A DNA stretch of 64,000 bases from a virus. Lineage: Duplodnaviria; Heunggongvirae; Uroviricota; Caudoviricetes. The DNA lies in IMG/VR virus record IMGVR_UViG_3300030055_000004, one strand, 5' to 3'. Below are positions 10,236 to 42,496 of the stretch, piece by piece. Below the pieces are notes generated by a model that did not search any database, was not told where the DNA came from, and saw only the letters and a program-made list of their open reading frames with translations. Positions within the stretch are counted from its first letter, which is position 1, and each line of letters begins with the position of its first letter. The translations under genes and the position numbers were made by a program.

Positions 10236-12152
10236 TTAAAATAAACACAATTGTTTATCTTCAATTAAATTAATTAATTTATTACATTCTTTAATATAAA
10301 AATCATAATTAATATCATATTCAGACATAATTTTTGATTCATAATTATTAAATATAGTTGTTACAACTCCTACACTTACTCCAGCTATTTTTCCACTTCC
10401 ATCAGTTGATTTTTTATATAAAGCACCTCCATGATTTGATACAAAATATCTAGTAGTTTTACTTAATTTTTTAATTTTCATTATTTCATCAAGATAATGC
10501 CATTGGGCTTCAAATCTACTATCAACTTTTAATCGTAAACAAAAATCATAAATATTATCATGTTTTCTTAATGTTTCTATTATTGGAATTCCAAAGAAAA
10601 AATATTGTTCTAAAGCAATAGATACAATTCTCATTGATGGATCTTTATGAAGATCTTTATTAATTTCAAAAGCACCTTTAGGTTTTATATGATCATCCAT
10701 ATATTGAGCAGAATAATTATTAACATCTCTAATAATCATTTTTTTATACTCATTAAATTCATAAGTTAATCCCGTAATATTAGTCATTTCAGTAGTAACA
10801 TCAATAGCTTTTTGATAATCAGATCTTTTAAATCTTAAAGTAATACCATCAGTATTAACTTGAAGAATAACTAAATTTTTTATAGCTTTATGTAATTTTT
10901 CAATCCACATACTAATCATAACTTGACCAGAAACAGTAGTTTTAAGAGTATATAAAGGATCATATAAATATGAATCTTCTGAATTAGTTTTACCATAACT
11001 TCCATTAGCAGCAAGTTTAAATCCTTCAACAATAACAAAATCTCGTTCTTTTTTAGGTTTTTTCTTTTCTGCTAATCTTACACTAACAATTTCTCCATCA
11101 TAAATATCTAAAAATCCAGTTCCTAAATGTTCAGGAAATAAACCTTGTTGTATAGCAAGACATGGATATAGACCATCAGCATCAATATCTAAAATCATAT
11201 ATTCATCATTTGAATCATATACTCCAGATTTTATACAAGCATGACATCCTCCAACACCATAATCAAGTTTAGTTCCTTTATATATTACACTAAATGAAAA
11301 TACGTTTTTAAGTATACCATCATAAATAGTTGTTGAATTAAATTTATTTATTAATAAATCAAATTCTTTATCATTAAAATTAGTCCAAATTGGCATACAA
11401 TTTTTTAATTGTATTTCTTTTCGATAACTTCTTAATTTTTTAATTTCATTGATATTTAAACCAAATTTATCACAATATAATTTAAGAATTAATTCAGTTC
11501 CAAGTTTAATATCATTATAATTCATACAAGGTAAATCGTATTGTCGTTGAATTTTTTGTCTTAATTCAATTTTATTTTTACCTTTATATAATGGATTTTC
11601 AGTATTACCTAAAGTAATGTTCAAAAATTCATTAGTTGCTTCAACATCATGTTTATTATAAGCTAAAATACTATTAATATCTTCAATAGTAGATATCCAT
11701 TGAGTATGATGAAATGGCATATCTTCTACAATAGGAAGATTCATTGCAACTTCTAATGCTTTTAAACTTGTAAGTTTAGCTTTATTATCATAATGCCAAA
11801 TTCTAAATAAATCAATTTGTTCTATTTTTTTATTCCAATCTGCAACTTGTGAAAATTGATTTGCAATTATTTCTTGAGATTTTTGATAAATCCTAGCAGT
11901 AATTGTCATTGGATCTAAATATTTATATTCATGATAATGTCGAATAATATGATGTAATAATGGATAATCATAATTATCATTATTATAACCTATTTGAATT
12001 AATTTATCTCTAAAAAGATGATGTATTAATTCTTCATAATCATTTCTCAATTTATGAATTACAAATTGATGATACGTTTTTGTTTGACGACAATATCCAG
12101 TATATGTAAATAAATTAGATAAACATTCTAAATCATATACTTCACTTAACAT
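10236..12152 (-). CDS. family B DNA polymerase (compact)
   Basis: 638 aa. Exo I motif YDLEC at the N-terminus; motif A DIDADGLYPCLAI; motif B KLAANGSYGKT; motif C-like VNTDGI. Confidence 0.7.
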   Translation of the reverse strand: MLSEVYDLECLSNLFTYTGYCRQTKTYHQFVIHKLRNDYEELIHHLFRDKLIQIGYNNDNYDYPLLHHIIRHYHEYKYLDPMTITARIYQKSQEIIANQFSQVADWNKKIEQIDLFRIWHYDNKAKLTSLKALEVAMNLPIVEDMPFHHTQWISTIEDINSILAYNKHDVEATNEFLNITLGNTENPLYKGKNKIELRQKIQRQYDLPCMNYNDIKLGTELILKLYCDKFGLNINEIKKLRSYRKEIQLKNCMPIWTNFNDKEFDLLINKFNSTTIYDGILKNVFSFSVIYKGTKLDYGVGGCHACIKSGVYDSNDEYMILDIDADGLYPCLAIQQGLFPEHLGTGFLDIYDGEIVSVRLAEKKKPKKERDFVIVEGFKLAANGSYGKTNSEDSYLYDPLYTLKTTVSGQVMISMWIEKLHKAIKNLVILQVNTDGITLRFKRSDYQKAIDVTTEMTNITGLTYEFNEYKKMIIRDVNNYSAQYMDDHIKPKGAFEINKDLHKDPSMRIVSIALEQYFFFGIPIIETLRKHDNIYDFCLRLKVDSRFEAQWHYLDEIMKIKKLSKTTRYFVSNHGGALYKKSTDGSGKIAGVSVGVVTTIFNNYESKIMSEYDINYDFYIKECNKLINLIEDKQLCLF

Positions 12153-19166: not shown

Positions 19167-20957
19167 TTATATTTTATTTAAATTAACATTTGAATGTCTA
19201 ACTGTAACATTTCCAGTACTTGTTTGATTCATACAACCAAACCAAATATAATCTCCTACTGCAACATTTACTATCCCAGATGATGACATTCCAGAATAAT
19301 CTGTTGATGTTTGAAATCTTCTAGATGCTACAATATTATCTAATGACGTTGCATTTTGAAATAATTCAAACTTAAATGTATCTGTGGAATTTGATGGGAA
19401 TGCTGTAACACTAAATGCTAAAACATATGCTGCATTTGAACCTGGATTAACCTGTAGAGTACTTCCCCTACTAACTGATCCTGTTCTAGTTGACGTAAAT
19501 GCATGTGTAATATAATATGAATTTATAGTTACAAATGTTACAGTATAAACTCCATTATAATCTACTGTACCAACCTGAGTTACTGGTTCTCCTGTAAGTA
19601 AATTATGTGGTGTTGTAGTTGTTATTAATACTGTACCAGGAATTGTTCCACTATAATTGGCTACACTTGCTATTGAAGCACTTGCTCCAATTTTAAATGT
19701 AAATCCAAGTAATGAACCAGCACCAAAATTATTAATAGAATGATAAAGATTTATATTAGTTATATTAGTTGCAATAGCATTTTCATATTGATACATTTCT
19801 CCATACAATACTTGCGTACCATTAATTCATTCAGTTCCATTATATCTAAGTACCTGATCAAAGACAGGAGCTGTAATTGTTACATCACTTAATCCAGTCA
19901 ATTCATTATTTAATATAACTCTTACAAATAAAGTTCCTGCTGTAGCACTAATAACACCAACTCTACCAACTCTAATTACATATTGTAATGGATCAGTTGG
20001 TGGAGTCATAGTTAGTCCTCCAGCTACTGTAGGACTTAAATATACATTAGCTCCAGATACAAAACCTAAAGTATTTAAATTATGTACTACACCAATATTA
20101 GTAATTAAACCAGTATCTCCAGGTAAAATATCCTGAGTAGCAACCCCAAGAACTGTGGATGTAGCTTCTGATGTTGCAATAGCTAAAGATATAGTACTAG
20201 TATCACTTACAAGACCAGTAGAATAAACCACTTGACCATTAAGAATAGTTGAACCTGTATTATTAAAACATAATACTGTTGTTTCTTGACCTATTTGTAA
20301 TGTAACATTTCCTGCAATCATTATAGCTGCTGTTTTATTAGGAGCATCATAATATAATCTTCCTTGGTCAAATGGACCAACAAGTGGTGCATTTCCAAGT
20401 TTAATTCCTTCATTAAAAGTTGGATAACCATTAATAATTGTTTGTGGTACTGTTTGATCTAATGTTAAATATGATCCTATATTTGCTTTTAATTGTAATT
20501 GATCATATAATAATTTAGCACTTGGATATTGTACATCTGTTGATGCACCTGAAATAGAAACAACTTTATTAGATATATCTTCTTTTCCTGCAATAGCTGC
20601 ACTAGTTATATAACCAACATCATTTGTAAATGCTGATATTAAAGTTGGAATAGCAGCACTTGTTATAAAGCCACTATCATTTGTTAATTGTGATGTTAAA
20701 GTGGGTATAATAGGTTTACCAGTTAAACTGGCATAAGTTCCTAAAGTAGCTACAGGAGCTAATATAGGTTTATTAAGTATTTCTGCTACTCCAGAAATGG
20801 CATTTCAATCTGAATTTACTTGAACTCCTCCAGAGCCAAGATTTAAATCATTTACAAATTGACTAAGAAAAGTAGGTCTATTGATTACATTTAATCAATT
20901 AATTTTTTCTCCACCTAATCCTAGTAAAGTTATGTAGTTGGGGGTTTCTTGTGTCAT
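19167..20957 (-). CDS. tail fibre protein whose frame contains three in-frame TGA codons (read as Trp)
   Basis: ATG at 20957, TAA at 19167-19169, about 597 codons. Repeated tail-fibre motifs LSQFVNDLNLG, SQLTNDSGFIT and SAFTNDVGYIT; rich in Thr, Ser, Gly, Asn and Val. In-frame TGA at 20895-20897 (EKIN-W-LNV), 20805-20807 (VNSD-W-NAISG) and 19827-19829 (NGTE-W-INGT). Confidence 0.6.
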
Positions 20958-21183
20958 AATATATAGTATAAAAAAAGGAGGGATATAAATATCTCTCCTT
21001 TTTAAGGTTGTTACTTAGTTAAAAGTTTCATAATTTCTGATTCTGTACAAACGTATGAATCCATTATATCTGCTGTAGCTTTACCAAGTGTATCATAATA
21101 AAATTTACGTATTTTCATACGTTCTTCATTTAATACTAAGTCAATAACTTTAGTAAAACTAATTTTCATATATTCTTCTTCCA

Positions 21184-21483
21184 TTACGATACTTTATTAG
21201 TTTCGTAGATTGCTACTGCTCCACCTGCTGCTGAAGCTATTGCCATGAATGATGCTACTGAATTAGTAACAAATGCATCTCCGGCTGCTGCTGTTGCTGT
21301 TGCTGGTGTTAATAACATTTCATAATCAGTTGCACTAACTACAGTAAAAGAACCTGAAATAGGAATTTTTTTAATATAAATAGTTTGTGTTGCTGATGTA
21401 TTTTGGATTTGAAGACTAGCTCTACTAGTATTAATAGGAGCTACTACTACGGATGTTGTTCCAACTACTAAAGGACTTGCCAT
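21184..21483 (-). CDS. hypothetical structural-like protein (Ala/Thr/Ser-rich)
   Basis: 99 aa with low-complexity composition, inside the structural block. Confidence 0.3.
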   Translation of the reverse strand: MASPLVVGTTSVVVAPINTSRASLQIQNTSATQTIYIKKIPISGSFTVVSATDYEMLLTPATATAAAGDAFVTNSVASFMAIASAAGGAVAIYETNKVS

Positions 21484-21499
21484 AATTTTAAGTTTTTTT

Positions 21500-21529
21500 A
21501 AAAAATAGGGGAGATTTTACTTCCCCTAT
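21500..21529 (-). terminator. rho-independent terminator downstream of the Gly-rich structural gene
   Basis: Stem ATAGGGGAG / CTTCCCCTAT. On the minus strand it is followed by UUUUUAAAAAAA. Confidence 0.5.
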
Positions 21530-21536
21530 CTTAAAA

Positions 21537-22340
21537 TTAGACAATAGTAGTTCCTGTTACTGTTGGATGAATATGAGTTAAGATTGAACTTAACAGATAT
21601 TGATTTTGAGCATTGTTACTAACTTGATTGTTAGCAGCAGCTAATTGATCTCTTAAATTTTGTACATTTAAGTCATTAATTAATGAACGTGTTGCATTTC
21701 CGTCAGAATTAATTAATGATTTAATTTCACAGCAACATTGAGCCATTGCAGCAGCATTTGCAGTTCCTTGAGCTATAATTTGATTAGTAGCATTTTGTGT
21801 TTGCATTGCAGCTCCATTAAAACCTTGTAACGTTGTAGTTGTTAGGTTATTAAATGAATTCAATTGTTGTAATGCATTTTGATTACTTTGTGCAGTAATG
21901 TCACGACCTAAATCATTAATTCCTTGTAAAGTAGTAAAAGCTGATGTAGCTTGTGCTGTTGATAAATTAGCTACAGAATTTAGAATATTTGCAGCTCCAC
22001 CATCTATTGCTGAATTAACTCTACGAAATTCACTATTTAAGATACTATTTAAGTCACCAGAAGCAACTTGAGATCCTAAATTAGTAATTTGTGATTGTAA
22101 TGATTGAAATGCTGGATTAAGAACTACATCAGTTGCTACTGCTGTTGCTGCTGGAGCTACATATCCTGCTCCATATCCTCCACCTCAACCACCACGTCCA
22201 CCAAGTAATCCACCTGCTAACGCTCCACCTAATAATCCGGCGATTCCCCCGCCTAAAATTCCACCTCCTGTGCCTAAAGCGGCTCCTGAAGTTCCTGTTC
22301 CTCCCATTGCTGGGATCATGCCATCTAATGTAAGTGCCAT
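21537..22340 (-). CDS. glycine-rich structural-type protein with one in-frame TGA (read as Trp)
   Basis: ATG at 22340. The N-terminus is Gly-rich (GGTGTSGAALGTGGGILGGGIAG...). In-frame TGA at 22185-22187 (GGRGG-W-GGGYGAGY). It continues into the 21537..21863 ORF without a frame change, about 268 codons. Confidence 0.5.
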
Positions 22341-22433
22341 AATTTAAAGTTTTTAAAAGTTTGTAATAATAATTAAAGTTTGTAGTACAAAGGTACTACA
22401 TTTTTAAAAACTATACGAACAAATTTTAAAACT

Positions 22434-24943: not shown

Positions 24944-25654
24944 TCATTTTGTAATTGTTATATAAAAAGGTTCATATATAGGTTGATAATTTTCATTTTT
25001 AATAGATACATTAACAACTTTGCCACCATTAAATTCAAATATATTATGATCCCCACTATGGATATGACCACAAACTAACAATTTAAATTTAGTTTTAGCT
25101 AATTGTTTTGCTAATGGTGGATTTCCTACAGATTCAGGAGTTCCTCTATTCCATCTTGTACTTTCAAGTATTTGATCAACTTTACCAATATTATAAGGAG
25201 GATCATGTGAAATAATTATATCACATTCTTCTGGAATAGCTAAAAATTTCTTTTCCATATATAAATCTTCTCTCATAAAAGGCCAACTACCAAATATATG
25301 ACAATAAGGAGTTCCAAATATTCTAAATTCTTCTCCATCATGTCTATGAATAATATAATTGTTTTCTAAATAAATTAGTTTAAAATCACATTGTTCTTTT
25401 AACGCTGCAATATTTAAAGAATTAATTCCTTCAAAATAAGCATCATGATTTCCAGCTATTAGATATACTTTATCTACAGGTAGAGATTTAATCCAATAAG
25501 CAAATTCAGTTTCTAACCATTTTTTAATTTCTGGTTTATTAAATTGAATATTTAAAGGACTTATATCTCCTGCAATCAGCATTATATCAGCAGATTCAAT
25601 AATTTCTGGTAAATAACCATGAAGATCACTAATTGCTACTATTTTCAATCCCAT
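24944..25654 (-). CDS. calcineurin-like metallophosphoesterase (possible 2',3'-phosphoesterase end-healing enzyme)
   Basis: 236 aa with SDLHG, AGDIS, AGNHD and CGHIHSGDH motifs. Confidence 0.6.
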   Translation of the reverse strand: MGLKIVAISDLHGYLPEIIESADIMLIAGDISPLNIQFNKPEIKKWLETEFAYWIKSLPVDKVYLIAGNHDAYFEGINSLNIAALKEQCDFKLIYLENNYIIHRHDGEEFRIFGTPYCHIFGSWPFMREDLYMEKKFLAIPEECDIIISHDPPYNIGKVDQILESTRWNRGTPESVGNPPLAKQLAKTKFKLLVCGHIHSGDHNIFEFNGGKVVNVSIKNENYQPIYEPFYITITK

Positions 25655-26811: not shown

Positions 26812-27350
26812 TACTTTTTATAGTTTACAATTGTAACATCGCAATTTTGTAATTCTTCTTGAATTATTTCTTTGATAATGTCCCAATTACCACCAGCCAA
26901 ACCACAACCAATTTTAGGGAGACCAATATGCTTACCTGCAAAAATATAATTCATTTTACGCATACATAAAGTTATTGCTTCATAATCAACAGGAGCTCCA
27001 CCAGAAGTCCCATATCGACATTGTGTATAAGCATTAACAACAGAAAAAGTTTTTAAATCAGTCCATTGTTTGAATTGATTTCTTACTTTACTATGCGAAA
27101 ATAATTTAGTTTCACCTAAATCATGTTTAGATAAAGTAAATGTATCATAATCAATTTGACCAAGTTTATTTACATCACCTTTGTACTCCATATCTTCTAA
27201 AGGAAATGTATTACACTCAAAAGTATTTTTCATTTCCACAGCAATACCAGCACCCATTATACAATAACAATTGCAGCCATGAGCGATTACATCAAACTCA
27301 CCTTGTAAGGCAAGTTTGATTAAATCACCATCTATTTCTTTATATGTCAT
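26811..27350 (-). CDS. macro domain protein (ADP-ribose binding/processing)
   Basis: 179 aa. GDLIKLALQGEFDVIAHGCNC...MGAGIAVEM and IGLPKIGCGLAGGNW match the macro-domain GDIT...DAIVNAAN...GGGV and IAFPaIstGvyG motifs. Confidence 0.5.
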   Translation of the reverse strand: MTYKEIDGDLIKLALQGEFDVIAHGCNCYCIMGAGIAVEMKNTFECNTFPLEDMEYKGDVNKLGQIDYDTFTLSKHDLGETKLFSHSKVRNQFKQWTDLKTFSVVNAYTQCRYGTSGGAPVDYEAITLCMRKMNYIFAGKHIGLPKIGCGLAGGNWDIIKEIIQEELQNCDVTIVNYKK

Positions 27351-28774
27351 TATTTTTTATTTAAAGCAATTTGTAAATATTCATCAGCAATTTTACGTAT
27401 TTCAGTAAATTTTTGATCATTAAATAATTCTCCATTTTTATAAACTACTTGTAATTCATCTATATAAGGATTATTTTCACCAAATTGTTCAGTAGAACTT
27501 TGAATTGTCATAAATCCATTACCAGCTTTATGTAATTTTAATAATCCTGCTTTACTTGCTTTAGTCATATCTGATTTTGGAGTTTTTTGTACATTAATAG
27601 ATTTACCTTCAATTTCAACATGTGAAACCTTTACAGCCCACCTATCAGTATCTCTACATAAACCATCTGTATGTAATCCACCACCAGAACCAGTATTAAA
27701 ATTTTCACAAGACCAACCTGTTTTAATATATTCTTCATAAATTTTAGGTATACTTTTTTCATTCATTCCATCACCTTGAAGTAAACCGACATTATGATTA
27801 ATCACTTTGTAGTCTTTATGATTTAAATGATACCCAAAAAGATTACCTAATTGTTCAGAATATTTAATTACATTAGTTAAAGGATCATTACTATCAGGAC
27901 GAGGTATAACTCTACCAGGTCTATCAATAATTTTCTGTTTAACTTCTGGGTCACCGAGTACATTTTTAATAAAACCATCAGCATCATAACTATCCATTAC
28001 AATACTAATTGGTAAATGTGGTTCAGCACGTTCTAACTGTGCTAACACATAATCAATTTCACCACGACCTTGACCCCATACAGTTGCTACTGAATGTTCA
28101 GTTGCCCACACAGATTGACCAATATTATTATCAGTATAGTATTCTTCAATACCTTCCATTGCTGGAAGATTATCACTACCATTAGAGAATATTAACATAG
28201 CCATTCCACCTAATACTGCTCCCTCACGATAAACAGCACCACGTAATCCAAAATCATTCACTGCAAATGCTAAATCTGGCTTATCACAAGTCATATTAAA
28301 ATAAGGAAGAATCCCTTTTTTAATATTGAATAAACGAGTTGCTACACCAGACGATTGCCAATTCCACATTAAATAATCTTCAAAATGACTAACCATACAA
28401 GCAAACCAAGGTTCAGTTGATACAATAGTGAAACAAACATTACCTGTTGGAAGAACTGTGCCTTCTTTAACACATTTAATTTCCAATGGGAAATAACCTA
28501 ATTTTTTAACTTTTTCCCAAATTTCTTTAGGAAAGTATTTATCAGTACCAAAGACACGTTTGCATCTTGCAGCACCTCTTTCAATATTTTCCTGTGTTAC
28601 TTTCTGCATGAAATATTCTTTAAGAATATATTGCATCCCAAAGAAACAAATTTCTGCATGTTGTCCACCCTTACGAGCTTCACCATATGAATAAAAATGA
28701 TTAATTCCAGCTGGACGTTGTAACCAATGAGTTATTTTATAAGCATCAGTATCTATTACACTATTTTTCCACAT
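27350..28774 (-). CDS. nadV: nicotinamide phosphoribosyltransferase
   Basis: 474 aa. N-terminal TDAYKITHW, then FGLRG; full-length similarity in pattern to NAMPT/NadV. Confidence 0.8.
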   Translation of the reverse strand: MWKNSVIDTDAYKITHWLQRPAGINHFYSYGEARKGGQHAEICFFGMQYILKEYFMQKVTQENIERGAARCKRVFGTDKYFPKEIWEKVKKLGYFPLEIKCVKEGTVLPTGNVCFTIVSTEPWFACMVSHFEDYLMWNWQSSGVATRLFNIKKGILPYFNMTCDKPDLAFAVNDFGLRGAVYREGAVLGGMAMLIFSNGSDNLPAMEGIEEYYTDNNIGQSVWATEHSVATVWGQGRGEIDYVLAQLERAEPHLPISIVMDSYDADGFIKNVLGDPEVKQKIIDRPGRVIPRPDSNDPLTNVIKYSEQLGNLFGYHLNHKDYKVINHNVGLLQGDGMNEKSIPKIYEEYIKTGWSCENFNTGSGGGLHTDGLCRDTDRWAVKVSHVEIEGKSINVQKTPKSDMTKASKAGLLKLHKAGNGFMTIQSSTEQFGENNPYIDELQVVYKNGELFNDQKFTEIRKIADEYLQIALNKK

Positions 28775-28951
28775 ATCTCTTATTTATTTTTTTAAATATT
28801 TATTTATTTTCTTCTACAAATTCTCCAATAATATATTCTGTACGAATTTTACCTACTACTTCGGCTTCACATGAACCACGAGGACAGCATTTAAATTCTT
28901 GGCATCTAGGACACCAAATTAAATCCGTTTCTTTTGTTGGTATATCAGGTA

Positions 28952-29374
28952 TTACCATTGTTTATTAATTAAATATTCATAAATTTCTCTCCAATCAGTT
29001 TCTGGATCGAATCCAGCTTTATCATCCAAAAGGACACTAAAGTAAAACTTTCTATTAAAATTACCAGTATTAGTATTATGAATATCAGTATTTTTATTAA
29101 AGAAATCAACAGTTATATTATTTTCTTTAAACATTTGTCTAATACGCATTAATTCAGATGGGTAGCACGAACTCCATAAAATAATTTTAGATTCAGGTAA
29201 TGAACTAATTAATTGTAAGCATTCTAAAGCATCATTATTAATCCATTCATTTTGATTAGTAGTATAATTACTTTTTAAACATACACCATGAAGATCAATA
29301 CACCAATAAATAGTCTCCCAATTGCGCTCATCCATTACTGAATAAGCACGTTCGATTGATTTGATTATTGACAT
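28952..29374 (-). CDS. hypothetical protein (weak HAD-like features)
   Basis: 140 aa. CIDLHGV and LLDDKAG segments look only loosely like HAD motifs I and IV. Confidence 0.2.
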   Translation of the reverse strand: MSIIKSIERAYSVMDERNWETIYWCIDLHGVCLKSNYTTNQNEWINNDALECLQLISSLPESKIILWSSCYPSELMRIRQMFKENNITVDFFNKNTDIHNTNTGNFNRKFYFSVLLDDKAGFDPETDWREIYEYLINKQW

Positions 29375-29588
29375 ACTATTAAATTTTAGTACAAGAACAA
29401 GTTGCTTTGTTCAAAGCATAAGAACTAGTTCTAAATCTATCTTCTGGATCTGGGATTGCTTTTAAAGAAAAATCAGTTGTATTTACATGGTATCCTTTAG
29501 ATTTCAAATGATATGCAATTATTTCTTTAATATCTGCAACACTTAAATTAATAGTTACTATTTCGCTAATTTCCATATTAGATATTTT

Positions 29589-35409: not shown

Positions 35410-35462
35410 TTTATATTTTTATTGTACCCGGGCCGAGAATCAAACTCGGATTTGAACGTTAG

Positions 35463-35535
35463 TATGCAAGCTGCGAATCGAACGCAGGACACTCGGTTTA
35501 GAAAACCGATGCTCTATCCCCTGAGCTACAAGCAC
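35463..35535 (-). tRNA. tRNA-Arg(TCT)
   Basis: Cloverleaf with D-arm GCTC/GAGC, anticodon stem TCGGT/ACCGA, loop TTTCTAA, T-arm CTGCG-TTCGATT-CGCAG. The acceptor stem has U•U at 5-68 and 6-67. Confidence 0.6.
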
Positions 35536-35538
35536 ATA

Positions 35539-36126
35539 TTACTTATCTTTAGGATAGCGAAATTCATTTCTTGCACTATTCTTATTCTTTGATTTAAATG
35601 TATCTAATTGAGAATCACAGTTAGGACAAATACACCTATAATTTTCTCTAATGTTATTTGCTGCATCTCCATCAATATGATCTAATATTAAAACTAAATG
35701 TTTATTATTCCATACAGAATCCATCCCACAAATTGCACATTTATTACCTTGTTCTTTAAGAATAAAAGGTTTTACAGTAGTAATACTATAATTACCTCTT
35801 TGATATTCTTTTGGAGAAGTAAGAAAATAATCATATAATTCTTTAGATTGAAATTCTTTTTGACATGTAATTCCACAATATTTTCTTTGAGTAGTTGTAT
35901 CTAAAGGTTTTCCACAATTTACACAAACTAAATCAGCATATTTATTTACACCTTTTCTAAATGTTTCAGATTCATTTATCTTTCTACGTTGTGGTAATTC
36001 AATTCCAAATTTTTTAGCAACTTTTCTTATATTTGAACCAGTGCAACCATAAGTTAAACCAATTGTATTATAAGGGATATTTTGTACTAAAATTAACTCC
36101 TCTAATTCTTCTTTTATATATTCCAT
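35539..36126 (-). CDS. HNH homing endonuclease
   Basis: 195 aa. C-terminal CAICG...HLVLILDHIDGDAANNIRENYRCICPNCD HNH motif with zinc-finger cysteines. Confidence 0.6.
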   Translation of the reverse strand: MEYIKEELEELILVQNIPYNTIGLTYGCTGSNIRKVAKKFGIELPQRRKINESETFRKGVNKYADLVCVNCGKPLDTTTQRKYCGITCQKEFQSKELYDYFLTSPKEYQRGNYSITTVKPFILKEQGNKCAICGMDSVWNNKHLVLILDHIDGDAANNIRENYRCICPNCDSQLDTFKSKNKNSARNEFRYPKDK

Positions 36127-36244
36127 TTTTATTAATTATTTATACTACAAAGGTACAAATAATTTTTGATATAAAATAGTTTGAATTAGTTAATTTATGT
36201 TAAAAGTGTACTGTTCTATTCAGTTGAACTATCCAGGCATTTAG

Positions 36245-36315
36245 CAAGTACACTAGGATTCGAGCCTAGATCAGGAGTTTTGGAGACTCTTATGCTACCA
36301 TTGAATCATATACCT
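36245..36315 (-). tRNA. tRNA-Trp(CCA)-like (atypical)
   Basis: Anticodon loop CTCCAAA (as in E. coli tRNA-Trp), T-arm CTAGG-CTCGAAT-CCTAG. The D-arm is weak, the anticodon stem has 4 bp plus an A:C mismatch, and the acceptor stem has two G•U pairs. Confidence 0.4.
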
Positions 36316-36318
36316 ATT

Positions 36319-36738
36319 TTAATTAATATCACATATTAAAGCTTTTCTTTTTTCACAAACTCCATAATAAAATTTAAGATTTTTTAATCCTCTCAAATAA
36401 ACATTTTGTCTTTGTGTATCATCCCAATGAATTACAATTTTTGATTTTATAGTTTTATCTGTAATCCAATAATTTGGTTTATTTTTAATATATTCAATAA
36501 AATGTTTAATACAATTTTTTGCCCATATTAAACTCTTTAATCCATCTTTTCCAGTTACTTTTAAAAATTGATAACCTTCTTTTCTTTTACCAATTTGTAA
36601 TTTAACATAATACCAATCACATTTATTAGTACTATCACATTCTAATTCTAAAAAAAGAATTTGACCTGCTTCATTTTTAGTAATATAATAATAAATATCT
36701 TTATATTTATTATTAGGTTTTAATACAATTTCATACAT
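36319..36738 (-). CDS. hypothetical protein
   Basis: 139 aa ORF between two tRNAs. Confidence 0.25.
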   Translation of the reverse strand: MYEIVLKPNNKYKDIYYYITKNEAGQILFLELECDSTNKCDWYYVKLQIGKRKEGYQFLKVTGKDGLKSLIWAKNCIKHFIEYIKNKPNYWITDKTIKSKIVIHWDDTQRQNVYLRGLKNLKFYYGVCEKRKALICDIN

Positions 36739-36752
36739 ATTATTAATTTTTG

Positions 36753-36835
36753 TACATATAGCAGGACTCGAACCTGCACGCCCCTACGAGCATCGGAGTC
36801 TAAACCCGATATGTCTACCATTCCATCATATACGC
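36753..36835 (-). tRNA. tRNA-Leu(TAG)
   Basis: Type II tRNA. Anticodon stem TCGGG/TCCGA, loop TTTAGAC, long variable arm, T-arm GCAGG-TTCGAGT-CCTGC. Confidence 0.55.
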
Positions 36836-36840
36836 ATTTG

Positions 36841-36913
36841 AGCCAAAGGTGGGGCACGATCCCACAACCCTCTCATTACAAGTGAGATACTCTACCAATT
36901 GAGCTACTTCGGC
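36841..36913 (-). tRNA. tRNA-Thr(TGT)
   Basis: Acceptor GCCGAAG/CTTTGGC, D-arm GCTC-AATTGGTA-GAGT, anticodon stem TCTCA/TGAGA, loop CTTGTAA. Confidence 0.65.
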
Positions 36914-37049
36914 AATTTTAGAGGGTCACTATTAACCTCTTTGATGTTGTTTCTTCTTATTCGTACACGTGTTTGAAATTCAGACTGGACTACATTTCTT
37001 TACCAGATAGTTTTAAATATATAAGACTAATGAAAACCTATATATCTTG

Positions 37050-37136
37050 CGGAGAGTACCGGATTCGAACCGATGTGCCCTGTTACAGGCCACTAGTTTA
37101 GCAAACTAGCACGATAAACCACTCTGCCAACTCTCC
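37050..37136 (-). tRNA. tRNA-Ser(GCT)
   Basis: Perfect acceptor GGAGAGT/ACTCTCC, anticodon stem CTAGT/ACTAG, loop TTGCTAA, long variable arm, T-arm ATCGG-TTCGAAT-CCGGT. Confidence 0.7.
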
Positions 37137-37438
37137 AATACATTACTTATGTTGCATATGATAGTGTTTAACTCTCAAATCAACTTTACTTTGTTTTAAT
37201 TTACTATTAGCAAATAAGTTATAAACAGGTTCTTCTAATATGTGATGAATAACATATATAGGAAAATTTAATATATCTATACCAATACAATATTTAACTA
37301 TCATATTTTTCTTGCAAATTTATGAATCAACCATCCAAAAACTAAAACAGCCCCTATTATAATTCCAATAATAATTCCAATTCCTATTTTAAACATTATT
37401 TTTTAATTTACGTTTTTGACCATGATATTTAATTTCAA

Positions 37439-37714
37439 TCATAAATATTCATAAGTGACCTTCTTTTTTTTTCCAATCATCTCCATATGATAAACCGCAT
37501 TAATAGGTCTATCTTCAATTATACAAACTCCATTCCCAATATAATTATACGATCTTGCATACATTTTATCATTGGTGGAATCTCTAATACATATTTCTTT
37601 ACCTTTTAAATACTGCCAATTAATTATAACATCATTACATAATTGATGAAAACTTCCTTGAACTATTTGCATATTATTTAATTTTTGGGTGAAAGGTGGG
37701 ATTCGAACCCACAT
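37439..37714 (-). CDS. hypothetical protein
   Basis: 91 aa. Its 5' end overlaps the tRNA-His 3' region. Confidence 0.2.
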   Translation of the reverse strand: MWVRIPPFTQKLNNMQIVQGSFHQLCNDVIINWQYLKGKEICIRDSTNDKMYARSYNYIGNGVCIIEDRPINAVYHMEMIGKKKKVTYEYL

Positions 37715-37775
37715 TAGTCATTACAACATTCCTGATTCACAATCAGGTCGGCATCCCTTACCGGCTACAATCACC
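37688..37775 (-). tRNA. tRNA-His(GTG) with extra G-1 and a long variable insertion
   Basis: Anticodon stem CCTGA/TCAGG, loop TTGTGAA, T-arm GTGGG-TTCGAAT-CCCAC, G-1:C73. The acceptor stem has U•U at 5-68 and 6-67. An about 19 nt insert sits in the variable region and the D-arm is weak. Confidence 0.5.
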
Positions 37776-37785
37776 ATATAAAAAG

Positions 37786-37868
37786 TGGGACATGATGGAG
37801 TCGAACCACCCGAGTCCGAAGACAACTGCTTTACAGGCAGTCCCGCTACCCCTACGGTATAACATCCC
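37786..37868 (-). tRNA. tRNA-Tyr(GTA)
   Basis: Type II tRNA. Anticodon stem CTGC/GCAG, loop CTGTAAA, variable-arm hairpin GTCTTCGGAC, T-loop TTCGACT. Confidence 0.55.
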
Positions 37869-38168
37869 ATATAATAGTCTTTCCTATCAGTCATACTTCC
37901 TTTAAATTCTGTTTAGATAATTCATCCTAACGGCAAAGCAGTATTGTATAAACCAGTATTCTTTAAAATTATGCTTGTACCGGAGTATTAGCTTCTTTAA
38001 TTTTTTCAGCAATTTTAGTATTAACTGCTTTTAAATTTGCTTGTGCTTGTTCAACTGTAACTATTTGATCATAAGCTAATGCTTTTAAATCATTTAATGA
38101 CATTGTATCAAGATTTACTTGTTGTTCATTCATTGTTTTAATTTTGACTATTATTTATCTCTTTTTAT

Positions 38169-38645
38169 TTATCTTACATTTATAATATTACTAAGTGTAC
38201 CTTTACTACTAATATTATATTTTAACATTAAATCTTTATAAGAATATCCAGAGTCACGATCAGCTTTAATTTCTATAACTAATTCATCTGAATATTTTTT
38301 ATGTGCATTAGAAGCTTTATTAATTCTTATTTCTTTAGATTGATCCATCATATTATCACTATGTGTACCTATTTTAAGATTATCCCAAGAATTATTTAAA
38401 GAATTACTATCCATATGTCGAATCATTATATTTTCTTTATAAATTTCTTCTCCAAATTTTTGATATGCTTGTAATCTATGTACTCTAACTTTAATAGTTT
38501 TACCTAGTAATTTTGTACTAATAGTTTTATAACCATTATTAATTGTGCCTAATAAAATTTTTCCAGATTTACTAATGCATGTACCATCTTTTTCAACTTT
38601 GTACCCTAAATCAAAAAGTACTTTTTCATAATATGTATATTCCAT
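38169..38645 (-). CDS. HNH (HNH_3 / AP2-type) homing endonuclease
   Basis: 158 aa. ...KVRVHRLQAYQKFG... and ...IRHMDSNSLNNSWDNLKIGTHSDN... are typical of phage HNH_3 endonucleases. Confidence 0.5.
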   Translation of the reverse strand: MEYTYYEKVLFDLGYKVEKDGTCISKSGKILLGTINNGYKTISTKLLGKTIKVRVHRLQAYQKFGEEIYKENIMIRHMDSNSLNNSWDNLKIGTHSDNMMDQSKEIRINKASNAHKKYSDELVIEIKADRDSGYSYKDLMLKYNISSKGTLSNIINVR

Positions 38646-38658
38646 ATAATAATTTAAG

Positions 38659-38741
38659 CGGAAGAAGTAGGTCCCGACCCCAAGATGTTTCCGTCCGTAC
38701 AGATTTCAAGTCTGTCTTGCTACCTAAGCAATTCATCTTCC
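38659..38741 (-). tRNA. tRNA-Ser(TGA)-like with aberrant T-arm
   Basis: Acceptor GGAAGAT, D-arm TTGC/GCAA, anticodon stem ACAGA/TCTGT, loop CTTGAAA, long variable arm. The T-arm region (GGGGTCGGGACCTAC) does not form a canonical TΨC stem-loop. Confidence 0.4.
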
Positions 38742-38820
38742 ATTAACGAGATTGCTTTGAACCTCTAAAGTCAACCTATATTGATACATATAGGATTTTA
38801 GTCTTTCTGGAGAAAGAATA

Positions 38821-39276
38821 TTATTTTTTAACTATATTTAAAATATCATAAAATTTACACCATTTTCTTATAGCATTATCTGTAACACCATAAAATTTAC
38901 CAACAGCAACAAATGAAATTAATTCTTTAAATTTAGATATAAGTTCTTCAGAAGTAGGTCTTTTACTACCATTAATTTTGTGTGAACATTCTTGAGAACA
39001 ACATTTATTTTTTCTAGATTTACCAATTAATTCTTTATTACAGTATAAGCAATATTTAGGAATAATTTCTTTAATTTCTTTAACTTTAATTTCTTTAATT
39101 ATTTCAATTGGAATAATATTTTCATTCACAATAAGACTTTCTTCTTTTTTACCTTTACCTCTATAATTATCAGTAAAAGCGTGACAATTAGGGCATAACA
39201 TTTGTAAATTTTCAATACAATGATTAGTATTTACTCCATCAATATGATGTAATTCTAAAGGAATAGGTTCTTCCAT
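38821..39276 (-). CDS. HNH endonuclease, C-terminal portion (split gene)
   Basis: Contains ELHHIDGVNTNHCIENLQMLCPNCHAF. It directly abuts the upstream ORF 39277..39606, which encodes the N-terminal part. Confidence 0.55.
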   Translation of the reverse strand: MEEPIPLELHHIDGVNTNHCIENLQMLCPNCHAFTDNYRGKGKKEESLIVNENIIPIEIIKEIKVKEIKEIIPKYCLYCNKELIGKSRKNKCCSQECSHKINGSKRPTSEELISKFKELISFVAVGKFYGVTDNAIRKWCKFYDILNIVKK

Positions 39277-39606
39277 TCATTCAGTATTATTACATTTTTC
39301 ACATCTATATTCCTTAATACCTTCTTTTAATAATCTTTTATTTAATTTTGATGTAGAAAAAGTAGAATAAGATACTAAAATTTCTTCAATTGGTTGGGCA
39401 AATTTAATTTGTGTATATCTTAATCCAACATTCCATACTTGCCCAGTAAAATGATCTGTATTTAAATCATATTCTTTAATTTTAGCATGAATTGTTTTGT
39501 AATTTCCTCCAACTGCTTTTAATCCTATTTGTCGGCATACTCCAGCAATAGATAAATTTTCTTTTACTGCAATTCTAATTTGTTCTTCTGTGTACTTAGT
39601 TCTCAT
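39277..39606 (-). CDS. HNH endonuclease N-terminal fragment (HTH-like)
   Basis: 109 aa, contiguous with 38821..39276. This is probably one endonuclease gene disrupted by a stop or frameshift. Confidence 0.35.
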   Translation of the reverse strand: MRTKYTEEQIRIAVKENLSIAGVCRQIGLKAVGGNYKTIHAKIKEYDLNTDHFTGQVWNVGLRYTQIKFAQPIEEILVSYSTFSTSKLNKRLLKEGIKEYRCEKCNNTE

Positions 39607-39688
39607 TTTTATAATTATTTAATACACAAAGGTACTAAATAATTTTGAGTCTACCAAATCGAATTATGTTAAAATATATTAAAAATAG

Positions 39689-39770
39689 TACCCGTAGCAG
39701 GAGTCCAACCTGCACGCTTTTAGGCGCTCCCGCTTAAAAGGAGTGTGTCTAGCATTTCACCATACGGGTA
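39689..39770 (-). tRNA. tRNA-Leu(TAA)
   Basis: Type II tRNA. Perfect acceptor ACCCGTA/TACGGGT, anticodon stem CTCCT/GGGAG, loop TTTAAGC, T-arm GCAGG-TTGGACT-CCTGC. Confidence 0.6.
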
Positions 39771-39823
39771 TTAATTGATTATTTTATATATAATCATAGT
39801 TTTAAGAACCATTCGTTCTTTGT

Positions 39824-39894
39824 TGTCCCATCTAGATTCGAACTAGAGCTATTTGAGTCAAAGTCAAATGTGTTAGACCACTACACTATGGAAC
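39824..39894 (-). tRNA. tRNA-Gln(TTG)
   Basis: Acceptor GTTCCAT/ATGGGAC, anticodon stem TTTGA/TCAAA, loop CTTTGAC, T-arm TCTAG-TTCGAAT-CTAGA. Confidence 0.65.
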
Positions 39895-40162
39895 AATATT
39901 ATTTTTCTATGCAGTAAGTGCTTAGACTTGCCTATCATACCTATCAGAATCATTTAATCTGGCACTAATCTTGGTTAGAAAAATTTAATTTAAAGGTACT
40001 GAATATCTTAACCCACCAGTACAGTCTCAATTCAATTGTATCGCTGTATACGAATACCTTCATGAGGATGGAAGAATTGCTCACACGTTACCTTTATATT
40101 GTAAGAATATCATCATTAGAAATACAATAAATTGTATTTCATCACACTACTATATTCTTGAG

Positions 40163-40233
40163 CGGGAAGTGTAGGAATCGAACCTACGCCTATTGATTAA
40201 CAGTCAACTGCTCGACCTTCGAGCTAACAACCC
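40163..40233 (-). tRNA. tRNA-Asn(GTT)
   Basis: D-arm GCTC/GAGC, anticodon loop CTGTTAA, T-arm GTAGG-TTCGATT-CCTAC. The acceptor stem has U•U at 4-69 and 5-68. Confidence 0.55.
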
Positions 40234-40356
40234 AGTTTATAATTTTTGCTTACCATCGCTTCACTGTTAAAATTACAAAAATACATCAGTTACCATTATC
40301 GTTGTTTCTGCATCAACGCTTCATCCGAAGAGGTCTATAGTCGGTTACTATAACTG

Positions 40357-40430
40357 AGCGATAAGTGGGTCTCCAACCCACAACCTCCGACTTGGAAGGA
40401 CGGCACTCTAAGCAATTGAGCTATTATCGC
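40357..40430 (-). tRNA. tRNA-Gly(TCC)
   Basis: Perfect acceptor GCGATAA/TTATCGC. Anticodon loop CTTCCAA with one U•U in the anticodon stem. The T-loop TTGGAGA lacks the conserved C56. Confidence 0.5.
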
Positions 40431-40543
40431 ATTTTAATTTAATACTATATCAGGGGTTTTCTATTGTACATTTAGCGAGCTCCCTTATACACATCATGAC
40501 TAAATTCATGTTATTTCCATTTTACAGAAACTATAATATTAAA

Positions 40544-40867
40544 TTATTTTATTAGTTGTAATCTATCAAAGATTAAACCATTATTTTCTATTGCTATGGC
40601 TGTAATTGTGCCACATAAATCTGGTTCATGAAATTCAGAAAATGTATATCCATTGTTTGCTAACTTTGGAATCCATTCATCTAAATTTGCTGATAAAAAG
40701 AATAAATAGTTGTTATTCCATTCTTGTGTTTCTTTATTATCAAGGAGGAATTGTGCTACTGCATGTGCTCCTTGGACACATCCATATACGCTATTTAATC
40801 TATTATTAATTAATACGTATAGTTTTCTTTCTTCTACTTGTTCCATTATTATTATTATTTTGTGCAC
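40544..40867 (-). CDS. peptidyl-tRNA hydrolase, PTH2 family
   Basis: 107 aa. KLYVLINNRLNSVYGCVQGAHAVAQF aligns with the PTH2 core K.[24 protein letters not shown]. A downstream ...GTITAIAIENNGL segment is also conserved. Confidence 0.5.
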   Translation of the reverse strand: MHKIIIIMEQVEERKLYVLINNRLNSVYGCVQGAHAVAQFLLDNKETQEWNNNYLFFLSANLDEWIPKLANNGYTFSEFHEPDLCGTITAIAIENNGLIFDRLQLIK

Positions 40868-40935
40868 CGCCCCAGACTTGAACTGGGAACCTATCGGTTA
40901 AAAGCCGAGAGCTCTACATTGGAGCTAGCGGTGCG
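40863..40935 (-). tRNA. tRNA-Lys(TTT)
   Basis: Perfect acceptor GCACCGC/GCGGTGC, D-arm GCTC/GAGC, anticodon loop CTTTTAA, T-arm CCCAG-TTCAAGT-CTGGG. Confidence 0.7.
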
Positions 40936-41095
40936 AGTTTGTTGGAATAGGCAAATCACCAACTATGATACATGCATTGAAAAGAATCACTTTTACTAAT
41001 TGTATCTTTCACATAAAAGTAGATAATGTGATTAGCATTAAACGTACTTTTTCTATACTAAGTGATGTAGCAGAGCAGTTTATTAAACTGTTGTG

Positions 41096-41167
41096 TGAGC
41101 CTAATAGGAGTCGAACCTATATCCCAGGATTCGTAATCCTGTGTTCTATCCATTGAACTATAAGCTC
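41096..41167 (-). tRNA. tRNA-Arg(ACG)
   Basis: D-arm GTTC/GAAC, anticodon stem CAGGA/TCCTG, loop TTACGAA, T-arm ATAGG-TTCGACT-CCTAT. Confidence 0.65.
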
Positions 41168-41177
41168 TCATTAATTG

Positions 41178-41250
41178 TGACCTCTGCTGGATTTGAACCA
41201 GCGACACCTAGATCTTCAATCTAGTGCTCTACCAACTGAGCTAAGAGGTC
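41178..41250 (-). tRNA. tRNA-Phe(GAA)
   Basis: Perfect acceptor GACCTCT/AGAGGTC, anticodon stem CTAGA/TCTAG, loop TTGAAGA, T-arm GCTGG-TTCAAAT-CCAGC. Confidence 0.75.
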
Positions 41251-41296
41251 AAGCAAGATTTTTACTTCTAGGAAGAAATACCTTGAAAAAGAACCG

Positions 41297-41367
41297 TTGC
41301 GATATCAAGAATTGAACTTGAATCAAATGGATATGAGCCAAACATTCTACCATTGAACTATATCACA
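41297..41367 (-). tRNA. tRNA-Met/Ile2(CAT)
   Basis: Anticodon loop CTCATAT on a weak stem, D-arm GTTC/GAAC, T-arm TCAAG-TTCAATT-CTTGA, acceptor TGTGATA/TATCGCA. Confidence 0.5.
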
Positions 41368-41368
41368 G

Positions 41369-41442
41369 TGGGGAAAATAGGACTTGAACCTATGACCTCC
41401 CGGGTATCAGCCGGACGCTCTAACCAACTGAGCTATATCCCC
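41369..41442 (-). tRNA. tRNA-Ile(GAT)
   Basis: D-arm GCTC-AGTTGGTTA-GAGC, anticodon stem TCCGG/CCGGG, loop CTGATAC, T-arm ATAGG-TTCAAGT-CCTAT. Confidence 0.65.
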
Positions 41443-41732
41443 ATTATTTTTCTAAATATTGGAATATAAAAATCTATGGATTGTATATCTTTTCTATGAA
41501 TAGATACTTTATAATTATCATATCTTTTAGATGTATTAGGTTGTCCAATTGGATCTTTCCATATTCTAAAATCTTTCATTACAAAATTTATGTATTCTCC
41601 TTCAAATACAACATCTATTGGATAATGATAATACTCATTCATACCACTAGGTTTTAATTTATGTAGTATAATCCAACAAATTCTTTTATTACTTAATAAT
41701 CTTGGTAAACTTTTAAAAACTTTTCTTGTCAT
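41433..41732 (-). CDS. hypothetical protein
   Basis: 99 aa ORF inside the tRNA island. Confidence 0.2.
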   Translation of the reverse strand: MTRKVFKSLPRLLSNKRICWIILHKLKPSGMNEYYHYPIDVVFEGEYINFVMKDFRIWKDPIGQPNTSKRYDNYKVSIHRKDIQSIDFYIPIFRKIMGI

Positions 41733-41779
41733 TTGGATGTATTTTATTAATTAATACTGTCCGCCATTTTAATAATTTG

Positions 41780-41854
41780 AGCTCATACTCCGATTTGAAC
41801 GGAGGAAATATTGGTTTTGCAGACCAACGCGTTAGACCACTTCGCCATATGAGC
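41780..41854 (-). tRNA. tRNA-Cys(GCA)
   Basis: Perfect acceptor GCTCATA/TATGAGC, anticodon stem TTGGT/ACCAA, loop CTGCAAA, T-arm CTCCG-TTCAAAT-CGGAG. Confidence 0.7.
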
Positions 41855-42017
41855 ATTTAAAAATTCAGTTCTTGCATAAGAAATAATAAACGTTAATTAG
41901 TTTTTTGTACGGGAGTTACACCTATTTATTATATTTACACAAACTAACTTATGCCTAAGTAAATAGCCCACTATATACGCTTCCACTATTTGTTTGCTTC
42001 AATCTGAATTTTATTGT

Positions 42018-42149
42018 TGCGAGCGCCGGATTCGAACCGTGTCTCGGGGTTATAGCTTTATTCTATTCTAAAATAAATTTTAGTTTGAACATTTCACAGA
42101 CTTTTAAACCTGTATGAGCCCAGTGAGCTACCATTGCTCCACCCTCGCA
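42018..42149 (-). tRNA. tRNA-like gene interrupted by an about 60-nt AT-rich insertion (CAT anticodon loop; possible intron or pseudogene)
   Basis: The 5' half (GCGAGGG-TG-GAGC-AATGGTA-GCTC-A-CTGGG-CTCATAC) stops after the anticodon loop. An insert of about 62 nt follows. The 3' half has a T-loop GGTTCGAATCC and acceptor CGCTCGC, which pairs with the 5' end at 6 of 7 positions. Confidence 0.4.
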
Positions 42150-42163
42150 TCTGTTATATTTTG

Positions 42164-42236
42164 TATAAGCGGTGAGACTCGAACTCACGACCACATGCTC
42201 CCAAAGCATGCATTCTACCAACTGAAATACGCCTAT
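42164..42236 (-). tRNA. tRNA-Pro(TGG)
   Basis: Acceptor ATAGGCG/CGCTTAT, anticodon stem CATGC/GCATG, loop TTTGGGA, T-arm GTGAG-TTCGAGT-CTCAC. Confidence 0.65.
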
Positions 42237-42343
42237 ATTTAATTAGAAATCCAATTTTTCAGGATCTTTGAAAGATAAAAACTCATTTGCGAATAATAAT
42301 CCGTTCTTTAAATAAATATCTTGTTTCATATCTAAATCATTTG

Positions 42344-42416
42344 CAGTACTGATGGGAATCAAACCCACTAAATCTCGATAGACAGTCGAGTGCACCAATC
42401 GTTATGCGCCAGTACT
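42344..42416 (-). tRNA. tRNA-Asp(GTC)
   Basis: Perfect acceptor AGTACTG/CAGTACT, anticodon stem CTCGA/TCGAG, loop CTGTCTA (position 37 is U, which is unusual), T-arm GTGGG-TTTGATT-CCCAT. Confidence 0.55.
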
Positions 42417-42423
42417 ATTTTTG

Positions 42424-42496
42424 TAATCGGTATCGGATTCAAACCGATGTTACTTCATAGAAGGTGAAGTGTGCTAGGTCACTGCACTAACCGATC
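42424..42496 (-). tRNA. tRNA-Glu(TTC)
   Basis: D-arm GTGC/GCAC, anticodon stem CTTCA/TGAAG, loop CCTTCTA (C33 and U37 are atypical), T-arm ATCGG-TTTGAAT-CCGAT. Confidence 0.55.

Follow-up and report, generated by a model that had tools for sequence, protein, structure and literature searches.

In-frame TGA codons in conserved genes

The DNA analysed here, referred to as the window, is the whole 64,000-nucleotide stretch of IMG/VR virus record IMGVR_UViG_3300030055_000004, which belongs to a phage of the Caudoviricetes. Two genes in a small island on its minus strand, a tail-fibre gene and a gene for a glycine-rich protein, contain in-frame TGA codons. A sequence-only reading of this island proposed that late structural genes of the phage read TGA as tryptophan while its early genes use the standard code. 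A fifth in-frame TGA, which that reading overlooked, lies in an HNH homing endonuclease gene. The genes and codons concerned are:

19167..20957, minus strand: tail-fibre gene, 596 codons plus TAA; PHROG tail-fibre match, and matches to annotated tail fibres in phage records
20895..20897, minus strand: in-frame TGA, tail-fibre codon 21, context KIN-x-LNVINRPTF
20805..20807, minus strand: in-frame TGA, tail-fibre codon 51, context QVNSD-x-NAISGVAEILN
19827..19829, minus strand: in-frame TGA, tail-fibre codon 377, context LRYNGTE-x-ING, where the central domain meets the C-terminal domain
21537..22340, minus strand: gene for a glycine-rich, coiled-coil protein with a CCCEIK motif; phrog_8119 (unknown function)
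22185..22187, minus strand: in-frame TGA, codon 52 of the glycine-rich gene, context GGRGG-x-GGGYG
38821..39606, minus strand: HNH homing endonuclease gene inside the tRNA cluster, 261 codons on read-through; split by gene callers into pieces of 109 and 151 amino acids
39277..39279, minus strand: in-frame TGA of the HNH gene, context CEKCNNTE-x-MEEPIPLELHHIDG

The tail-fibre frame begins with the ATG at 20957, continues through 596 sense codons without an internal TAA or TAG, and ends with the TAA at 19167-19169; the glycine-rich frame (22340..21537) has 267 codons and a single in-frame TGA. The coordinates first proposed for both frames and for their four TGAs are all correct, the earlier length of about 597 codons being 596 sense codons plus the TAA. 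In total, five in-frame TGAs are found in the window within otherwise intact, conserved open reading frames (ORFs). Standard-code ORF calls give only fragments of the two island genes (19827..20321, 19167..19808 and 22185..22340).

Chance frames and sequencing errors had both been raised as possible sources of this pattern. Off-frame codons on the same strand are TAA or TAG in 8.9% of cases and TGA in 3.6%; a frame of 596 codons free of TAA and TAG is therefore untenable as a product of chance. Had the four island codons arisen as random nonsense mutations, TGG-to-TGA changes at every one of them would have a probability of 3e-8 to 1e-5, the value varying with transition bias. Sequencing error is excluded because the tail-fibre gene is base-identical across independent assemblies: including its three TGAs, it is 100% identical in ENA ERZ27249832, JGI 3300029998 and JGI 3300030002, with neither TGG nor a frameshift at these sites. 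The phage is present in dozens of assemblies (JGI, ENA, Logan) at 99.95-99.98% identity, with a longest contig of 168,189 bp (ERZ27249832:k141_1775190). An exact 41-mer spanning codon 51 has zero matches in IMG/VR. Tail-fibre codons 52-212 contain no ATG, GTG or TTG; consequently, the first two TGAs must be read through for this conserved part of the protein to be made.

Homologue searches, with X placed at the TGA positions, indicate which residue belongs there. At tail-fibre codon 51, tryptophan is the most frequent aligned residue (109 alignments), and matches sharing the context all read QVNSDWNA.SG.AEILN. At codon 377, all same-context homologues (P0015, P0032, P0057, P0079 and P0110) have tryptophan (LRYNGTEWVNG). 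The stitched product thus aligns with tail-fibre proteins that carry tryptophan at two of the three TGAs for which it had been proposed; codon 21 is considered below. The column at codon 52 of the glycine-rich gene is aromatic (W or F) in nine of ten aligned homologues, which is also in keeping with the original proposal, and the closest orthologues in IMG/VR (L060-L062, 87% identical) read NRGGWGGNGYG with a TGG codon for the tryptophan. The TGA column of the HNH gene is tryptophan in three phage homologues (SEWKGKSIPLELHHING, TDWMGEPIPLELHHIDG and AEWMGQPMTLHIDHING). The invariant GLAQW motif of the Phage_lysozyme2 protein is encoded with TGG in this phage and with TGA in two relatives (L019 and L020). 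Judged from these alignments, TGA is the counterpart of tryptophan in these genes.

TGA in early and late genes, and a candidate decoder

Early genes in the window show a different pattern. On the coding strand, standard-code calls of at least 50 amino acids (122 ORFs) contain 225 TGG codons and no in-frame TGA. The three long genes named beforehand as TGA-free controls are indeed free of it: TGA and TGG number 0 and 6 in the polymerase (10236..12152), 0 and 10 in NadV (27350..28774), and 0 and 13 in a 525-amino-acid protein (49658..51235).

TGA terminates 16 early genes. In 14 of these, the stop lies in an ATGA overlap with the start codon of the next gene, as at 24944..24946 on the minus strand; further early TGA stops on this strand are at 24681, 34575, 35072, 45980, 46681, 59976 and 61428. 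An A precedes 21 of 49 sense TGAs, compared with the 14 of 16 early stops in ATGA (p = 0.003). Since ATGA overlaps exceed the rate for sense TGAs, TGA is a genuine stop in early genes. From TGA stops to the nearest following in-frame TAA or TAG the median distance is 3 codons, and from TAA or TAG stops it is 7 codons (p = 0.067); such nearby codons may serve as back-ups that keep read-through short after a suppressor has become active.

The genome was walked outward from the window by exact-protein look-ups and IMG/VR scans, and ~150 kb of the ~168 kb phage was covered. Downstream of the window, further genes for replication and nucleotide metabolism, none with an internal TGA, are followed by the Phage_lysozyme2 gene and then by a switch of coding strand. 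On the opposite strand of the same phage there is a long frame interrupted by TGAs only, to which IMGVR_UViG_3300029983_000035 (48,911 bp) shows 99% amino-acid identity. This late contig was rebuilt from overlapping loci. It contains 23 ORFs with 44 internal TGA and 54 TGG codons, and no TAA or TAG interruptions; ~45% of late tryptophan codons are TGA, and the difference from the 0 TGA and 225 TGG of the early genes is large (Fisher p = 3.5e-27). The proposed division between late and early genes thus extends well beyond the genes for which it was made.

On this contig, a 1415-codon virion structural protein has 15 TGA and 2 TGG codons; the endolysin has 3 TGA and 0 TGG; the major-head-like (major-capsid-like) protein has 1 TGA. 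Four further late ORFs, of 1322, 1519, 2882 and 2909 codons, have 5, 5, 3 and 2 TGAs respectively. Related phages at 70-78% amino-acid identity share the TGA habit.

The two giant ORFs, of 2909 and 2882 codons, are adjacent (L035 7940-16669; L030 1504-10152) and are followed by the 1519-codon ORF. A 122-amino-acid fragment of a giant ORF had zero matches in a protein search, and one ORF of the window had no record in the exact-protein look-up. Among 50,697 deposited phage genomes there is no close relative.

Contrary to the earlier claim, recoding is not strictly confined to late genes, since the HNH gene has a TGA at a conserved tryptophan position. GIY-YIG and HNH-type endonuclease genes of related phages also carry TGA at tryptophan-like positions. 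It would seem from this that recoding repeatedly targets mobile endonuclease genes or is carried by them. Endonuclease-type genes with in-frame TGA are found in relatives at L019 10848-11738, L023 3287-4237 and L017 663-1244; TGA contexts there include RKYG*NVF (GIY-YIG-like gene) and LKD*AKEF.

It could be argued that genes containing TGA are decaying pseudogenes, or are made as separate short polypeptides, and that nonsense mutations or uptake from a phage with full recoding lie behind this. Gene callers do fragment these genes, the TGA of the HNH gene is followed by an ATG, and the tail fibre is a mosaic that is absent from related loci and was probably acquired horizontally. However, in frames of up to 2909 codons TGA is the sole interruption, with no TAA, TAG or frameshift, and homologues have tryptophan at all TGAs but codon 21, where it is weakly supported. 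In addition, a restart within tail-fibre codons 52-212 has no start codon to use, many samples share one fixed, identical sequence, and the genes carrying TGAs include those for the capsid-like protein and the endolysin, which cannot all be dead in an abundant phage. Decay or separate translation is therefore extremely unlikely.

The tRNA genes that bear on the decoding of TGA are:

35462..42496, minus strand: cluster of 20 tRNAs (ARAGORN and Rfam)
36244..36315, minus strand: tRNA-Trp(CCA), with an A27.C43 mismatch (4-bp anticodon stem), U11:A24, a U12.C23 mismatch, C54, A59 and G73
L054 4445-4517, ~14.1 kb beyond coordinate 64000: tRNA(UCA), 73 nt, Rfam 50.9 bits

ARAGORN and Rfam detect no UCA anticodon among the 20 tRNAs of the window, its transfer-messenger RNA (tmRNA) or an odd tRNA-like gene. 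The tRNA(UCA) stands apart from the cluster, on a contig (IMGVR_UViG_3300030339_000923) which overlaps the phage of the window at 99.96% over 7.4 kb. Its anticodon loop is CUUCAAA and its discriminator base is G73; the variable loop has 5 nt, and the acceptor and T stems have the 7/5 arrangement. The tRNA is located in a block of small ORFs that is divergent from the early genes; one ORF of the block encodes a helix-turn-helix protein. These ORFs are TGA-free except for two TGAs near the 5' end of one ORF (codons 2 and 11); the block is therefore readable by a standard-code host. Farther upstream on the same contig are three more ORFs, with 3, 1 and 3 TGAs.

ARAGORN labels the UCA tRNA 'SeC', and the TGA of the glycine-rich protein sits within a glycine run; these are the points in favour of reading TGA as selenocysteine or as glycine (code 25). 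Selenocysteine tRNAs have a long extra arm and an extended acceptor/T stack. The tRNA(UCA), in contrast, has 73 nt, its variable loop is short and its acceptor stem is 7 bp long, and the residues aligned with TGA in homologues are W, or W/F, including at the site in the glycine run. Either meaning is scarcely credible.

Another possibility is that UGA is read mainly as a near-cognate codon by the tRNA-Trp(CCA) of the phage, the tRNA(UCA) being secondary or non-functional. An E. coli tRNA-Trp variant, C27A/G24A/G59A, reads UGA in vitro, and C27A alone raises UGA read-through ~2.5-fold in vivo (PMC13092985); the phage tRNA has A27.C43, A24 and A59 at the same three positions. However, a fully cognate tRNA(UCA) is present, and the 27:43 mismatch is not specific, being found in three of the 20 cluster tRNAs (Trp(CCA), Lys(UUU) and Met(CAU)). 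A24 is, moreover, common in bacterial tRNA-Trp. We give very little credence to near-cognate reading as the main route; as an auxiliary near-cognate reader of UGA, the tRNA-Trp(CCA) is a possible, though not a necessary, candidate on this analogy.

Several other RNA genes were identified. A tmRNA at 54594-55013 (minus strand) is matched by Rfam RF00023 (75.5 bits, E ~1e-27) and was not called by ARAGORN; its tag frame apparently ends ...TAYAVAA, followed by UAA. As a speculation, it may rescue ribosomes that run past genuine TGA stops in a UGA-suppressing phage. The acceptor, D and T arms of the tRNA-like gene at 51262-51338 (minus strand) are good (Rfam 52.8 bits); where the anticodon arm would be, there is a 3-bp stem around 14 unpaired nt. 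This gene was rejected as a decoder, and the ARAGORN label 'Cys GCA' is doubtful, as it requires a bulged stem and C33. A tRNA-Asp(GUC) at 42344-42416 (minus strand; Rfam 43.1 bits) was missed by ARAGORN. A weak tRNA-like sequence, L054 15836-15906 (Rfam 30.3 bits), lies ~2.7 kb past the high end of the window in a 1.2-kb gene-free gap; ARAGORN calls it 'Phe(AAA)', it has several acceptor-stem mismatches and it is probably degenerate. Downstream of the tRNA cluster, 44645-45376 (minus strand) encodes a PolyA_pol-family protein, which we take to be possibly a CCA-adding tRNA nucleotidyltransferase.

The setting of the island and the host

The remaining features of the island and its surroundings are:

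21184..21483, minus strand: 99-amino-acid ORF, conserved partner 3' of the glycine-rich gene
21011..21184, minus strand: 57-amino-acid ORF between the conserved pair and the tail fibre; no family match
22381..22400, minus strand: inverted repeat TGTAGTACCTTTGTACTACA upstream of the glycine-rich gene, holding the motif TAGTACCTTTGT with a TAnnTTTG element
9138-9149, 22387-22398, 36147-36158, 39626-39637 and 61985-61996, minus strand: copies of TAGTACCTTTGT, two of which precede HNH endonuclease genes
21510..21526, minus strand: terminator-like hairpin and T-run just 3' of the glycine-rich gene
20971..20998, minus strand: hairpin GGAGAGATAT..ATATCCCTCC and a T-run after it, 14 nt upstream of the ATG of the tail fibre; seen by eye, not by the terminator scan

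The tail fibre is made up of N-terminal tail-fibre repeats (amino acids 1-130), a central domain (162-380) which is 47% identical to P0015, and a C-terminal domain (385-596) which is 49% identical to the C-terminus of P0013. P0013 is encoded in the structural module of a crAss-like phage. The glycine-rich protein has 188 homologues, and its gene has 41 related loci in IMG/VR. An ORF of ~97-98 amino acids follows its gene in all five related loci examined (L061, L067, L074, L089 and L094); in the closest relative examined, the pair lies among small unannotated ORFs without internal TGA. The structural label given to the glycine-rich gene is not justified: the gene matches phrog_8119 (unknown function) and belongs to a conserved two-gene pair. 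No tail-fibre homologue is found beside the glycine-rich gene in the related loci examined; for this reason the tail fibre looks like a lineage-specific insertion next to the pair, and it was probably acquired horizontally.

The flagged genes had been taken as late structural genes. They form a small island amid early-type genes, and the main late module lies elsewhere, on the opposite strand. Nor is the description of the genome as T4-style supported: the polymerase shares only ~33% identity with its counterparts in unrelated siphophages and podophages.

Two other loci of the window may be mentioned here. The PHROG profile of the thymidylate synthase (Thy1/ThyX-type; 17526-18632, minus strand, 368 amino acids) aligns with the protein in two stretches that are apart from each other. 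At the DNA level, the gene shows 72% identity to part of a Flavobacterium phage for which the annotation gives thymidylate synthase and HNH endonuclease. What is seen here may be an insertion or a fusion; the region provides the sole nucleotide match of the phage to the deposited genomes. NadV is part of an NAD-salvage pair (27350-30482, minus strand), consisting of NAMPT/NadV and a NUDIX-domain protein.

With at most one mismatch allowed, TAGTACCTTTGT occurs five times in comparison with 0.43 expected, always on the coding strand and upstream of gene starts; the copy at 39626-39637 lies upstream of the recoded HNH gene. Its TAnnTTTG element resembles a Bacteroidota-type -7 promoter box. The full -33/-7 Bacteroidota pattern is not enriched, and a sigma-70 promoter scan of the island found fewer sites than in shuffled sequence. 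Leaders are A-rich and show no Shine-Dalgarno enrichment (9.0%, compared with 8.2% at random positions). The lack of Shine-Dalgarno enrichment, the TAnnTTTG-type motif, the Flavobacterium phage matches and the crAss-like tail-fibre domain together indicate that the host is probably a member of the Bacteroidota. Bacteroidota use the standard code.

If the host itself used code 4, with UGA as tryptophan as in Mollicutes and some endosymbionts, the phage would simply follow its host and no switch would be needed. The genome has a G+C content of 27%, and the short distance from early TGA stops to the next TAA or TAG would keep read-through tails short; both are compatible with such a host. However, at 27% G+C a code-4 host should lead to TGA dominating tryptophan codons throughout, and early genes have none. 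The back-up-stop trend is non-significant, and 14 of the 16 early TGA stops are held in start/stop overlaps. The phage also carries a tRNA(UCA) of its own, and leaders, motif and tail-fibre domain point to Bacteroidota. A code-4 host is thus very unlikely.

A probable dual reading of TGA and its relation to known systems

We consider it likely, with a probability of roughly 0.85, that TGA has two readings in this phage: it is a stop codon in early genes and is read as tryptophan in late ones, by means of the phage-encoded tRNA(UCA). This builds on what is observed directly, namely the in-frame TGAs and their correspondence to tryptophan, the early/late asymmetry, the use of TGA as an early stop and the presence of a tRNA(UCA) gene. 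What we infer is that the tRNA(UCA) is charged with tryptophan, when the genes are expressed, which regulatory purpose this has and that the host uses the standard code. Early, replication and nucleotide-metabolism genes are written in the standard code, with tryptophan as TGG only and TGA as stop; virion proteins, the capsid-like protein, giant structural proteins, the endolysin and the tail fibre would use TGA for tryptophan, as would the glycine-rich gene and some homing-endonuclease genes. Host ribosomes would at first complete only the TGA-free genes. As tRNA(UCA) accumulated and was charged with tryptophan, late genes containing TGA could be completed; TGA would in this way act as a post-transcriptional gate on late, potentially harmful genes.

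There are a number of points which weigh against this reading. At tail-fibre codon 21, one homologue aligns (P0060, ...VNWSDILNKPTF), most repeat alignments are ambiguous, and tryptophan is weakly supported. The ATG directly after the TGA of the HNH gene makes two polypeptides possible. The island lies on the early strand between early-type genes, with a phosphoesterase gene upstream and genes for thymidylate synthase and RNA ligase downstream; its 'late' label consequently reflects gene content, not timing. Charging of tRNA(UCA) with tryptophan would follow from G73, the anticodon-loop context and the protein alignments; similarity of tRNA(UCA) to the other tRNAs of the phage, including tRNA-Trp(CCA), does not discriminate between amino acids. 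Finally, Pfam annotations of the ~150 kb of genome covered include neither release factor 1 (RF1) nor tryptophanyl-tRNA synthetase (TrpRS).

A more elaborate scheme can be envisaged, in which UGA is handled by a layered system of tRNA(UCA), the unpinned tRNA-Trp(CCA) and tmRNA rescue, the gate also acts on homing endonucleases, and partial recoding is an evolutionary intermediate. We regard this as rather unlikely.

The dual reading resembles several known systems to different degrees. A tRNA-Trp(CCA) that has a 4-bp stem and an unpinned 27:43 pair reads UGA in Blastocrithidia, Condylostoma and Ca. Zinderia (PMC13092985); phages are not mentioned in that work. The likeness lies in the unpinned 27:43 pair of the phage tRNA alongside in-frame UGA as tryptophan. 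In those systems, however, tRNA-Trp(CCA) is the only UGA decoder, while here there is a cognate tRNA(UCA) too.

TAG is reassigned to glutamine (code 15) in crAss-like and Lak phages, as validated by metaproteomics (PMC9523058). The logic is shared: late genes carry a reassigned stop codon, a suppressor tRNA of the phage serves to decode it, and the code of the host is the standard one (here, by inference). One tail-fibre domain is also common to this phage and a crAss-like phage. Codon and amino acid differ, however, and the replication genes of this phage are not crAss-like; a crAss-like relative, L011, shows no recoding in the homologous gene. Phages of Absconditabacteria and Gracilibacteria use code 25 (UGA as glycine); in the present phage the aligned residues are W or W/F, not glycine.

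The closest parallel is with phages that read TGA as tryptophan (code 4) and carry suppressor tRNAs; the clades named 'Agate', 'Jade' and 'Topaz' are among them, as are some crAss-like phages. Borges et al. proposed that stop-codon recoding delays translation of late genes (bioRxiv 10.1101/2021.08.26.457843). The likeness to recoded gut phages suggested by the sequence-only reading agrees with this model, and the tRNA(UCA) that the model calls for has been found. TGA aligned with tryptophan, a tRNA(UCA), a late-gene bias and a code-change block written in the standard code are all shared. The pattern is already described for phages, and the mechanism is not new. Ivanova et al. (2014) and Yutin et al. 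(2021) reportedly also deal with recoded phages. There are a number of differences. Recoding is partial in this phage (45% of late tryptophan codons), a recoded island lies amid early-type genes on the early strand, and homing endonucleases are recoded. The suppressor tRNA is apart from the tRNA cluster, and RF1 and TrpRS were not found in the ~150 kb; these accessory code-change genes are optional and occur in some recoded clades only. The present sequences come from metagenome assemblies with no evidence of gut origin; a literature search for the accessions of the samples gave no result.

Calling genes under the standard code shatters the tail fibre, the giant virion proteins, the capsid-like protein and the endolysin into dozens of meaningless fragments in public data; neither annotation nor the inference of host range succeeds without code 4, chosen separately for each region. 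The analysis adds a large and abundant phage without a close deposited relative, which probably infects Bacteroidota, to the phages with a stop-codon timing gate. What stands out is partial recoding, an island amid early-type genes, recoded homing endonucleases and TGG/TGA swaps between orthologues. With TGA as stop, TGA as tryptophan and TGG as tryptophan in one genome, and TGG/TGA swaps in close relatives, the phage provides its own internal controls; this makes it useful for following how recoding spreads gene by gene, including through mobile homing endonucleases and an exchangeable tail-fibre cassette.

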